Source of the DNA: Cellvibrionales bacterium
GTDB taxonomy: Bacteria > Pseudomonadota > Gammaproteobacteria > Pseudomonadales > JAHEGP01
Direction of reading: 5' to 3'
NCBI GenBank assembly: GCA_024645065.1
Contig: JAHEGP010000001.1
Span: forward strand, 1-43,729
Length of the DNA: 43,729 nucleotides
Shown: piece by piece, positions 34,078 through 40,746 of the stretch
Position numbering within the stretch: position 1 is the stretch's first letter
Layout: each line of letters starts with the position of its first letter
Program-made: the position numbers and the translations under genes
Notes under the pieces: generated by a model
Database searches by the model: none
What the model was told of the DNA's origin: nothing
Seen by the model: the letters and a program-made list of their open reading frames with translations, nothing else

Positions 34078-35271
34078 CTATGGCCTGTTGACCCAGCAAT
34101 CCCAGGGCGCCAGCGCCTCGCGCAGGTAGCGAAAACCTATCCGCTCCTGCTCGAGACGCAGGCTGGGTGCGAGTCGGTCGAAACACAGGTCCTGGTAGAG
34201 TTCCTGCTCGGCCTTGTGCAATCGCTGCAGGGGTTTGCGGGTCGGCTTGGGCTCAAAACCCCATAGTGGCTCATTCGCCAGCAGCGTTGATCTGTCCATC
34301 AGAAACGATCGCGCGCGGGGGAAATAGCTGCGCAGCTGGTCGAGCATGGCGAAGCCATGAGTATCGATATCTCCCCAGTAATGGATTACCTTGTCGGCCA
34401 GCCAGTTCGTCTTACTGAGCTTGTCGAGACCATAGCCGAGGCCAAAGATCACCATGGACCGCGGCACGTCAGGAAACGCGAGGCCGTTGATCTCGTTCTC
34501 GGTGATAAAAACGTTCTCTACCTGAAGGCCAAGCCCGGCGAAATCCTCCGCCGGAATCTGCAGGTCTCCCAGGCCGTGCAGATACAATGCCGGGTCCAGC
34601 AGGCGAAAGCGAATCGGCGTGGGTTTCGCGCGGAAACCGTAACGGGCCTCGAAGCCGGCGTTGCCCCGGGCGGTGTCGTCGACCTGTGCCGGGTCGAGCA
34701 CCTGATCCAGTAGTTCGGCAAGCACTTTTTTGTGGCCTTCGATGAACTTGGTATCCACGCCGGGGAGATCGAGCTGGCGCAGATAGATGCCGGGCCGCGG
34801 GTGCTCGCCAAGCCATTGCAGCACGGCTATCAACTTCGGCCACTCCCGCTTCAGTGCCAGCGCCTGCAATGGGCGCCGCTCCAGCCAGCCGGACAGAGCG
34901 CCAAAGCGCGCCAGCATCTCACCCCGAATACGATCGAAATCCCGCGCAGCCTGGCGCTTGCCGATCCAGGCCAGAGCCTGGTCGCGATTATGGAACAACG
35001 CCGCCACCGGCAATGCGTTGCGTCCTATCTGGCGGGAGTTGACCTCACGCCACTGCAGTGCACAATCCGCCTGGCTCTCCAACTGCGCCCATTGCCTCAC
35101 CCAGTCACGTGCCTGGGTATAGCGCGTGCCCAGATCGCTCGCCCCGGGTCCCCGTAACGGCAAACGCAGCGGAAACCCCGGGCTCTGGCCGTCCACCGAC
35201 AGCAGAAGGCCCTTATCCCAGTAGCGCTGCAAGCGACTGCGCAGATCCTCCGGCGAGGTCCAGCGACTCAT
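34078..35271 (-). CDS. jetD: Wadjet JetD (MksG-like): N-terminal DUF3322-like domain plus a C-terminal Toprim/TopoVI-A-like (DUF2220-like) nuclease domain
   Basis: 397 aa. The N-terminus [21 protein letters not shown] is typical of JetD. Toprim Glu is in [13 protein letters not shown] (E258, 34498-34500) and DxD is in [19 protein letters not shown] (34363-34371). ATGA overlap with jetC. Confidence 0.85.
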
Positions 35272-38200
35272 GCCGAACTGGCCGCACGCTGGGCCCGGTA
35301 CTCCTGAATGGTGAGATTCCTCAACTGCGAATCACGCCCTTCGGGGTTGTGCACGAAACCGACGCTGGCGACAAAGGGTTCGATAATGTGAATCTTCTGC
35401 AGGGGTGTGATAATCAACAATTGCAGGTGCAAACGCTTGAAGAGTTCCAGACCGAAACGCGCTGATTCATCCGAGCCGCGACCAAAGGCCTCATCGATCA
35501 CCACAAAGCGAAAGCTGCGCGAGCGTACGGCTCCCCATTCCAGGCCAAACTGGTATGCCAGGCTCGCCGCCAGCACGGTATAGGCCAGTTTTTCCTTCTG
35601 ACCGCCGGATTTGCCGCCAGAATCGGTATAGTGTTCGTGCTCACTGTCATCCTCCTGCCAGCGCTCCGAGGCGGCAAACTGAAACCAGTTGCGTACATCC
35701 GAAACCTTGCGCGTCCAGCGCCGATCCAGTTCGGTGCTGCCCTCACGCCCCCGGAAGCGGTCGATAATCGCCTTCACCTGGAGAAACTTTGCCTCGGCGT
35801 ACTGATCTGCCTCCGAGCCGGTGATATCACCCTCGATACAGGCGCGAAGCTGTCTCTGGAAGTCACGGATCTCGGCATCCGGGGTGTCCTGGGCTTCCAG
35901 CAGAATATAGCGCCCCGGGTTGTATTCGATCCCCAGCAGTGACTGGTTAATGCGCTCGATCCGCTCCTGGATGGTGCTGCGCTCACGCTGGAGCTTGGAC
36001 TGGAAACCGGCAACCTCGCGAATGGTATTTTCGTTCAGTAGCTGCTTGAAGCGTTCGGCAAAGCGTGGCAGATCGTCGGCCTGCAGGCGGGCCAGCATCT
36101 CGCGGAACTCGTCAGCGGCGTCAAGGCTGGCATCGACCTCCTGGGTCTCCAGCGGATACCCGTCGCGGTAGCGCTGCATCGCCACCACGATCGTTTCCTC
36201 GAGGTGCTTGATGCGTTTTTCCTCCGCGTCGATCTTCCCCTGCAACCACTCGCGCAACTCCCGCTCTCGGTTGTCACAGGACTCCACCGTTAGCTGGTGC
36301 TCCCCCAGGGCTTCACTGCGCAGGGGTTCCAGCTCGGCATGCAATGCAGCGCGCGTTGCCTCGGGGCAGGCCTGCAGCTGCTCACCGCAGGCATCGAGCA
36401 GACCCTGCGCCTGAGACCGCTTTTCATCGTTGCGCGCCAGCTCATCCTGCAACTGCCGCAGTTGTTGCTCGGTTTCGGCCATCGTATCCTCGAGGGCGAC
36501 CAGCCGGGCGTTGAGTGTGCGCAGGATATCGGAGCTGGCCTCCAGTTCCTTGCGCTCGCGCTCCAGTTCAGCCACCTCTCGCGCCAGCCGTGGCCAGTCA
36601 AGTTCGTCAAAGTCGCTGAAATTTTCAATCTTGTCCAGCCAGGATTTCTGCTCTACCAGTTCCCTCAGCCGTTGCTGCAACGTGGCCAACTGCCCAGCCG
36701 TGCCCTGGATTTTCGCTTCCAGCCCTGTGACCCGCGCCGCCAGCGCGGCAATCTTGGCGTCGTTACTCCAACCCAACACATAGCGACTGCGATCATCCAG
36801 CCGATGGCGGTCGTCCTTCTCATGGCGCTGGCCGCCGGCTTTAATCTGGCCAGCCAGGGTGACCGCTCGATGCTCGCGCCGGAAGCGCTCCAGCGAATCG
36901 CAGCAGACGTAATCGAAACGCCTGGCCAACTCCTGCTGTAACCACGGGTAAAACTCACTATCGGGTTTGATCTCCAGTTTGCGAGACAGCGAGTCGGGCT
37001 GGGTATCGACGGGCAAGGCGTTGCGGTCGATACGCACCCGGTAATAGACCAGGCGCCCCCGGAGACGGGTGCGGTCGACCCACTGGGCAACCTGCCCGTA
37101 GAGGTGATCGGGGACCAACAGCGATAGACCGAAGTTGTGCAGCAGGCGCTCGGCGACCCCCTCCCAGGCGGCCTCGCTCGCTCTCACCTGAATCAACTCA
37201 CCGGCAAAGGGCATCCCGGTCTCATCGACATCGAGCGCTGCGCACAGCTCACGTCGCAGCTGAATCTGACGCGCATCGATATTACTGCGCCGCTGCTTCA
37301 GGGATTCCAGCTCGCCAGCCAGGTCATCGCGCTGGACTCTCAGGCTTCGCAGTTCAACCTCATGATCGACACTGGCATTTTGCAGCCCGGCGCTGCGTTG
37401 GGCGCTGCTGGCCAAGAGCGTTTGAACCGAATCCCGGTTGGCCTGAAACTGCTCCAGGGTTTCGATGCGCGGCAGCTCAAGGCTGGCGGCGAGCCCGGCG
37501 TAGAGGTCGGCACGCCTGCGGCGCTTGTGCAGCTCGGCATCGCGCTCGACAAGCTCGGCCTTGAGGCGCTCCAGGCGGTCGCCGCCGTTGGCGGCAATTG
37601 CCCGCATCAGTTCATCCCGGTCGATCAGCTGCTGGCGACGCAGGCCGGTTTTTTGCTCGACCCGCGCCTGGGTTTGGCGGGCAGCACTGACCAATTTGGC
37701 GAGGCGCACATCCAGCAATCCGGCCTTCAGACCGGCGAAGTGAAAGCGAAGGCCGTTGCGACAGTCCTGCCAGTAACGGCTGCTGGCACTCACCTCACGG
37801 TGGCGATCACAATTGTCCACCAGCGGAATCAACCGCTCCACCTGGTCGCGTGCTTTCAGGACCGATTCGTGGGCCCGGTTGAGGTCTTCGAAATGGCCTA
37901 TCAGCGCTTCGATCCGCGGCTCAACGGCGAAGGGTTCAAGCATGTGTTCGCGCACGAAGTCAGTGAGATTGCCCACAGACTTCATCGACACGGTCTGGTG
38001 GAACAGCTCCAGCGCCTGGGCGTTGTCGATACCAAAACGGCGGCGAAATGCGGCCTCATAGGGTGGAAAGCTGTCGAAGGGGCCTTCGACGCCCGCCCGG
38101 TCACGCAGCCGCTTGCGCAGCTGGTTGATATCGCTGCCGAAGTCTGCGAAGTCAGTGGCGATGCCCAGCACCTGGTCGGCGACAAGGTAAAACCGCGTCG

Positions 38201-40700: not shown

Positions 40701-40717
40701 GCGATTCTAGAGCGCCC

Positions 40718-40746
40718 ATTATCCTGCTTAAGGCACCTATGATCAA
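40718..40746 (-). promoter_or_regulatory. Candidate sigma70 promoter of the jetABCD operon
   Basis: The minus strand reads TTGATC (40746-40741), an exact 17-nt spacer, then GATAAT (40723-40718). The predicted TSS is only about 9-13 nt upstream of the jetA GTG. Confidence 0.45.

Follow-up and report, generated by a model that had tools for sequence, protein, structure and literature searches.

A jetABCD (mksFEBG) operon of the type I Wadjet family next to tadA on a contig of an uncultured gammaproteobacterium

The window, which is the whole stretch of 43,729 nucleotides (nt) analyzed here (contig JAHEGP010000001.1 of assembly GCA_024645065.1, Cellvibrionales bacterium), contains on its minus strand a group of four genes, jetABCD, also designated mksFEBG. 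With a probability of about 93%, this locus should be an intact type I Wadjet system, which most likely prevents small circular plasmids from becoming established freely. The four genes are arranged in the order jetA-jetB-jetC-jetD and are tightly coupled, their products are full-length members of the respective families with intact motifs, and the operon is located at an accessory position. The preliminary description of this DNA, which had been made from the sequence alone, assigned the operon to type I Wadjet, and this identity is borne out by the Pfam matches, by PADLOC matches exclusively to type I models, by the matches to solved structures, and by the gene order. The operon is canonical and would be called automatically by the standard defense-system models, so that the locus may be regarded as an ordinary one.

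Family membership and catalytic residues of the four proteins

The profile searches recovered the expected families for all four products. JetA matched DUF3375 (PF11855) in Pfam with an expectation value (E) of 1.1e-159 over residues 17-484, corresponding to model positions 2-474 of 474. JetB matched DUF4194 (PF13835; 3e-45) and also MksE (PF21980; 5e-20). JetC possessed AAA_29 at residues 19-79 and SbcC_Walker_B at residues 978-1068, with about 1e-23 for each of these head domains, and JetD was composed of DUF3322 (PF11795; residues 7-189; 7.5e-55) followed by JetD_C (PF09983, formerly DUF2220; residues 212-387; 6.4e-56). With family E values of 1e-159, 3e-45, about 1e-23, and about 1e-55, the four open reading frames (ORFs) are far beyond what chance would yield. 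These were the families that the preliminary description had predicted for a Pfam search, namely DUF3375, DUF4194, AAA_29 plus an SbcC-like head, and DUF3322 plus DUF2220. Its statement that the N terminus of JetA resembles DUF3375 was correct with respect to the family but too narrow, because the match spans the whole protein.

The defense-system models of PADLOC, a caller of the kind also suggested there as a check, named JetA1 (7e-220), JetB1 (3e-90), JetC1 (E = 0; 1605 bits; residues 2-1121 at model positions 3-1120 of 1123), and JetD1 (1e-143), and the coverage was nearly end to end for all four proteins. No model of a type II or type III Wadjet system was listed in PADLOC for any of the four at E ≤ 1e-3. 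The matches of JetC to non-Jet models in PADLOC were weak: LmuB with 1e-10 within residues 355-953, and PtuA with about 1e-5 on the P-loop. The NCBIfam search yielded no model naming JetA, JetB, or JetD, and for JetC only sub-threshold matches to SMC and Rad50 models.

Comparison with solved structures of characterized systems extended these assignments to the residue level. The JetABCD system of Escherichia coli GF4-3, a type I JET nuclease (PDB 8as8, 8bfn, 8q72), has the same four subunits as the operon in the window. JetC could be aligned with the E. coli chain 8as8_A over residues 16-1114 (9e-61), JetA over residues 14-456 (7e-23), JetD with 8q72_M, the E248A variant, over residues 6-390 (1e-13), and JetB with 8as8_C over residues 18-148 (1.5e-4). 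JetB of the window, with its 196 amino acids (aa), is shorter than the E. coli chain of 250 aa, and the alignment begins about 40 residues into this chain; part of the difference in length could be an expression tag. JetABCD of Pseudomonas aeruginosa PA14 (8dk1, 8dk2, 8dk3, 7til) contained the best solved match for JetC (8dk2_C; 2e-64; residues 17-1110 against 31-1099) and for JetB (8dk1_E; 7e-6). JetA matched there with 1e-22, and JetD with 4e-10 (7til), aligned over residues 5-329 only. All three solved JetA chains, 8q72_E, 8as8_E, and 8dk1_A, were found with about 1e-22. The sequences of both the E. coli and the P. aeruginosa system are distant from those in the window. The best structural relative of JetD was MksG (8b7f) of the MksBEFG system from Corynebacterium glutamicum (1e-23; residues 13-380), the host of which is an actinobacterium, unlike the gammaproteobacterium of the window. 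The alignment of JetC ran end to end and should include the heads, the arms, and the hinge, with arms and hinge being assigned by the alignment to the solved full-length JetC.

The catalytic motifs were found where the preliminary description had placed them. In JetC, these are the Walker A motif GDIGSGKST at residues 48-56 with K54, the signature SGGQ at 1011-1014, and the Walker B motif FVVIDE(AF) at 1045-1050 with E1050. In an alignment of 58 JetC homologues, the extended signature KSGGQ and the residues I-D-E-A-F of Walker B were invariant, and Walker A was nearly invariant. The Toprim residues E...DxD of JetD are part of ITENE at residues 256-260 (E258) and GDIDTHG at 300-306 (D301, D303), giving the metal-binding pattern E258 plus D301-x-D303, and E258, N259, D301, and D303 were invariant in an alignment of 77 JetD homologues. 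The assignment of E258 as the catalytic glutamate also stands: counted along the printed alignment, this residue falls exactly on alanine 248 of 8q72, and the DxD motif aligns with that of E. coli JetD as well. The authors of 8q72 described E248A as a cleavage-deficient mutant of E. coli JetD and E248 as a putative active-site residue. In the alignment with MksG, E258 and D301 fall on positions 342 and 385 of the 8b7f chain, which are E236 and D279 of MksG at a tag offset of 106, and this mapping is self-consistent because the 106-residue offset is the same for both residues. E236 and D279 bind metal (Mg2+/Mn2+), and their alanine mutants lose nuclease activity, as reported in the 8b7f paper. 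As far as can be read from the sequence, the set of catalytic motifs in JetC and JetD is intact, and since the proteins carry all conserved catalytic residues, the Wadjet system looks catalytically competent. That the four proteins belong to the Wadjet families is settled by profile matches covering their full length, together with alignments to solved structures at the level of single residues.

Layout, genomic position, and relatives of the operon

The features of the locus are listed in Table 1. At the junctions, as read from the sequence, the stop codon of jetA is separated from the ATG of jetB by a gap of 7 nt (TGA CTCCCGC ATG), the stop codon of jetB and the start codon of jetC share one base in TGATG (1-nt overlap), and jetC and jetD overlap by the 4 nt of ATGA. 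The ORF map and these junctions are in agreement with the preliminary description, which had reported four minus-strand ORFs of these lengths, packed in this manner. The limits of the locus given there, 34078-40746, contain the four genes but exceed the coding sequence, which ends at 40700; the additional 46 nt take in a promoter-like element.

TABLE 1 The jet operon and its immediate neighborhood in the window
Feature	Position	Strand	Description
jetA (mksF)	39237-40700	minus	487 aa, GTG start; kleisin-like subunit, DUF3375
jetB (mksE)	38639-39229	minus	196 aa; KITE-like subunit, DUF4194
jetC (mksB)	35268-38639	minus	1123 aa from ATG at 38639; SMC-type ABC ATPase
jetD (mksG)	34078-35271	minus	397 aa; nuclease, N-terminal DUF3322 (arm/CAP), C-terminal Toprim
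Promoter-like TTGATC-17-GATAAT	40718-40746	minus	From consensus scan; 17 nt upstream of jetA GTG
Spacer from jetD stop to tadA start	34044-34077	minus	34 nt; contains synteny break with relatives
tadA	33564-34043	minus	Essential tRNA adenosine deaminase gene, downstream of jetD
Regulator gene (Trans_reg_C + TPR)	40879-42777	minus	632 aa; directly upstream of jetA

The longest ORF of jetC would start with a GTG at 38711 (35268-38711, 1147 aa) and overlap jetB by 73 nt. The ATG at 38639 is the supported start, because the alignment with the PADLOC JetC model, which has 1123 positions, already begins at residue 2 of the 1123-aa protein. Two long antisense ORFs on the plus strand, 37137-38486 (449 aa) inside jetC and 39213-40277 (354 aa) inside jetA, probably represent shadow ORFs in DNA containing 61% guanine plus cytosine (GC).

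The operon follows a stretch of housekeeping genes in the window that contains pgm, a DUF1329/DUF1302 pair, der, bamB, hisS, ispG, rlmN, iscS, a SpoU methylase gene, suhB, secF, secD, purL, mltF, and tadA. After tadA come jetDCBA and the gene for the 632-aa regulator. The adjacent genes for the DUF1329 (LolA-like, 472 aa) and DUF1302 (679 aa) proteins, at 4676-8090 on the minus strand, are a second multigene unit that is not obviously housekeeping. Look-ups of the exact sequences of JetD, JetB, TadA, and the MltF of this contig gave no recorded match, and the organism was placed by means of MltF homologues. Relatives of MltF were present on metagenomic contigs with 81-83% identity; those in Oceanicoccus, Halieaceae, and Spongiibacteraceae reached only about 50%.

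The two closest relatives, designated L080 and L082, have the block from iscS to tadA in common with the window. The blastn similarity extends from about 22040 to 34058 in the case of L080 and to 34044 in the case of L082, and thus stops about 20-35 nt short of the jetD stop codon at 34078 and 1-15 nt upstream of the start codon of tadA at 34043. Beyond tadA, no jet genes were present in L080 (about 9.5 kb fetched) or in L082 (about 1.9 kb, to the end of the contig). L080 possesses at this site two unknown ORFs and a gene for a CarboxypepD_reg protein, and L082 an ATP-dependent DNA-ligase-like gene. Because the similarity stops at this point and the relatives are without jet genes there, the Wadjet operon is accessory and located in a variable region adjoining a conserved core block. 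The far edge of this variable region is beyond 40700, and the contig ends at 43729.

With respect to the route of acquisition, the search for tRNA genes and Rfam families in the window remained negative, which leaves no integration site linked to a tRNA. No direct or inverted repeats marking an island flank the operon; the repeats detected around it were short, low in identity, and of the kind that chance produces. No integrase or transposase domains were present among the larger ORFs of the window that were scanned. This indicates, together with the lack of a difference in composition or codon usage, that the acquisition dates back a long time, that the donor had a similar base composition, or that the flanks were exchanged by homologous recombination.

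The 632-aa protein encoded directly upstream of jetA carries a winged-helix DNA-binding domain of the CadC/OmpR type (Trans_reg_C, residues 127-200), and TPR repeats make up its C-terminal part. It was considered as a regulator of the Wadjet system and rejected, because it had no match in PADLOC and no relative at the 79 related Wadjet loci described below; a connection with the system is improbable.

In a scan that covered a single genome of each species, more than 550 stretches encoded a relative of JetD, and 79 loci were fetched. The best relative, with 71% identity, came from an uncultured gammaproteobacterial metagenome-assembled genome. Many others in the fetched loci, from Chlorobi, Deltaproteobacteria, Acidobacteria, Nitrospirae, and Betaproteobacteria, had about 50% identity. 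The order jetA-B-C-D was retained in nearly all related loci on sufficiently long contigs. The absence of the operon from the syntenic site of the closest relatives and the scattered occurrence of JetD at about 50% identity agree with the patchy spread expected of a defense island. Relatives of JetD with about 51% identity were also contained in 50 plasmid records, 38 of them from Ralstonia, and the ten best were all located on Ralstonia replicons of about 2 Mb. Several of these ten were annotated only as "hypothetical protein" or were not annotated.

A few of the related loci differ in the interval between jetC and jetD. In L031 (3117-10002), three extra co-directional ORFs are situated there, one of which encodes a 1278-aa SNF2 helicase matching the DpdE/ZorD models of PADLOC with an E value of 1e-178. 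L049 (8149-9948) contains at this place a co-directional gene for a 599-aa GmrSD_N (HEC-05-like) protein. To judge by their sequences, the extra genes in L031 and L049 look like defense genes nested inside a Wadjet operon. Gaps of 0.8-1.1 kb between jetC and jetD were present in L014, L029, and L076.

Predicted mode of action and alternative explanations

The jet operon of the window is presumably expressed, and its products may assemble into a complex that restricts circular DNA up to a certain size. Judged by the characterized homologues, two JetC SMC ATPases would dimerize via their hinges, the kleisin JetA would close the head side of the resulting ring, and a dimer of the KITE subunit JetB would bind to JetA. 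Homology to 8as8 and 8q72 suggests that two of these JetA1-JetB2-JetC2 motors may be joined into a dimer of pentamers, in which ATP hydrolysis, involving E1050 of Walker B, would power the extrusion of DNA loops. A small closed circle would be extruded completely, whereupon the motors would stall with a sharply bent stretch of DNA remaining between them. This stretch would be bound by a dimer of JetD and cut via the Toprim site with E258, D301, and D303, and the linearized plasmid would then be lost. The chromosome and large replicons should be spared since they are too large for full extrusion. Circles are reported to be restricted up to a size of about 100 kb (10.1101/2022.10.04.510915), and the presence of JetD relatives on Ralstonia replicons of about 2 Mb would fit this value. 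Concerning the nuclease subunit by itself, MksG of C. glutamicum cleaves DNA in vitro without MksBEF (8b7f paper), and E. coli JetD alone is inactive (8q72 paper).

None of the observations contradicts a plasmid-restricting Wadjet system at this locus, but three of them call for caution. The similarity to the proteins from E. coli, P. aeruginosa, and C. glutamicum is only moderate, with E values from 1e-64 for JetC to about 1e-5 for JetB, and the size limit and other quantitative properties could therefore differ. The GC content, the GC content at third codon positions, and the codon usage of the jet genes are those of the housekeeping genes, so that there is no compositional sign of a recent acquisition. 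Finally, promoter-like matches in the region around the operon (33400-43000) were no more frequent than expected by chance.

Part of these observations could also be accommodated by a housekeeping condensin of the MksBEF type, which would serve chromosome organization or segregation and have jetD as an incidental fourth gene. The MukBEF and MksBEF condensins have the SMC-kleisin-KITE architecture in common with JetABC, JetB also matches MksE, JetC is weakly similar to SMC_prok_B, albeit far below the cutoff of this model, and the operon resides among housekeeping genes with a similar codon usage. These condensins are without a Toprim nuclease subunit, however, and the locus is not a three-gene SMC-kleisin-KITE set lacking such a subunit: its fourth gene, which overlaps jetC by ATGA, encodes JetD in full length, and the metal site of the Toprim domain is intact. 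The preliminary description had used the presence of jetD to separate the operon from a housekeeping MksBEF condensin, and this distinction holds. Moreover, the best PADLOC models are all of Wadjet type I, the Pfam and NCBIfam scans of the four proteins reported no match to the MukB, MukE, or MukF families, and neither L080 nor L082 has the operon at the syntenic site, which is unexpected for a core function in chromosome maintenance. A condensin is consequently a very unlikely explanation. The weak matches of JetC to LmuB and to the ATPase heads of PtuA that were listed above might suggest another SMC-based defense system, such as Lamassu, but the LmuB match falls outside the two ATPase-head domains, in the stretch that separates them, and its E value is larger than that for JetC1 by hundreds of orders of magnitude. 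A Lamassu system would combine an LmuB ATPase with an LmuA effector, and none of the four proteins matched an LmuA model in PADLOC. Considering also the lack of matches to type II and type III Jet models at E ≤ 1e-3, the probability of Lamassu or of a Wadjet system of these other types is negligible.

It is also very improbable that what is left here is a Wadjet locus that has fallen silent or is decaying and has no present activity. There is no strong Shine-Dalgarno sequence in front of the GTG of jetA, which could be seen as a sign of decay, but none of the four frames is interrupted, their matches extend over nearly the entire models, and no loss was noted among the catalytic residues that were checked. 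The start and stop codons at the overlaps are intact as well. The essential gene tadA begins 34 nt downstream of jetD with no terminator-like site in between, which suggests transcription through jetD.

As an intact type I Wadjet operon, the locus is of small importance beyond its correct annotation, being one more sequence in a large and well-modeled family that raises no new mechanistic question. Worth noting are only the close junction with the essential tadA, which is mildly unusual, and the defense-type genes situated between jetC and jetD in some of the related loci. The uncultured gammaproteobacterial lineage carries a complete gene set for plasmid restriction, and this would be relevant for attempts to transform it with small plasmids.

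Upstream region of jetA and the junction with tadA

The consensus scan of the 33400-43000 region found one promoter-like match on the minus strand, TTGATC-17-GATAAT upstream of jetA. The sequence GGATAAT was present at the equivalent place upstream of jetA in two of the related loci, L001 and L002, and was lacking in L003. TTGATC-17-GATAAT is a weakly supported candidate for the jetA promoter, and if this site is used, the leader of the jetA transcript would be only about 10 nt long.

At the other end of the operon, tadA starts 34 nt after the stop codon of jetD on the same strand and possesses a GGAG ribosome-binding site. Neither a promoter-like nor a terminator-like site was found by the scan in this 34-nt spacer. 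In the relatives L080 and L082, the spacer upstream of tadA has a length of about 200-380 nt. Because the spacer is so much shorter in the window and the similarity ends close to the ATG of tadA, the ancestral upstream region of tadA was not retained. To judge from this arrangement, the expression of tadA presumably depends on transcripts that either run on from the jet operon or start within jetD. It is conceivable, although rather doubtful, that the sequence natively upstream of tadA was displaced when the Wadjet operon arrived, and that tadA would now be transcribed by read-through from the jet promoter or from a promoter inside jetD. If this were true, the essential tadA would be tied to a defense operon, forcing constitutive transcription of jetABCD, and deletions that remove the jet promoter would be selected against, which would amount to a passive stabilization of the defense island. 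On its other side, tadA is convergent with mltF on the plus strand, and the 3' ends of the two genes overlap by 8 nt (33564-33571), with an equal overlap in L080 and L082.

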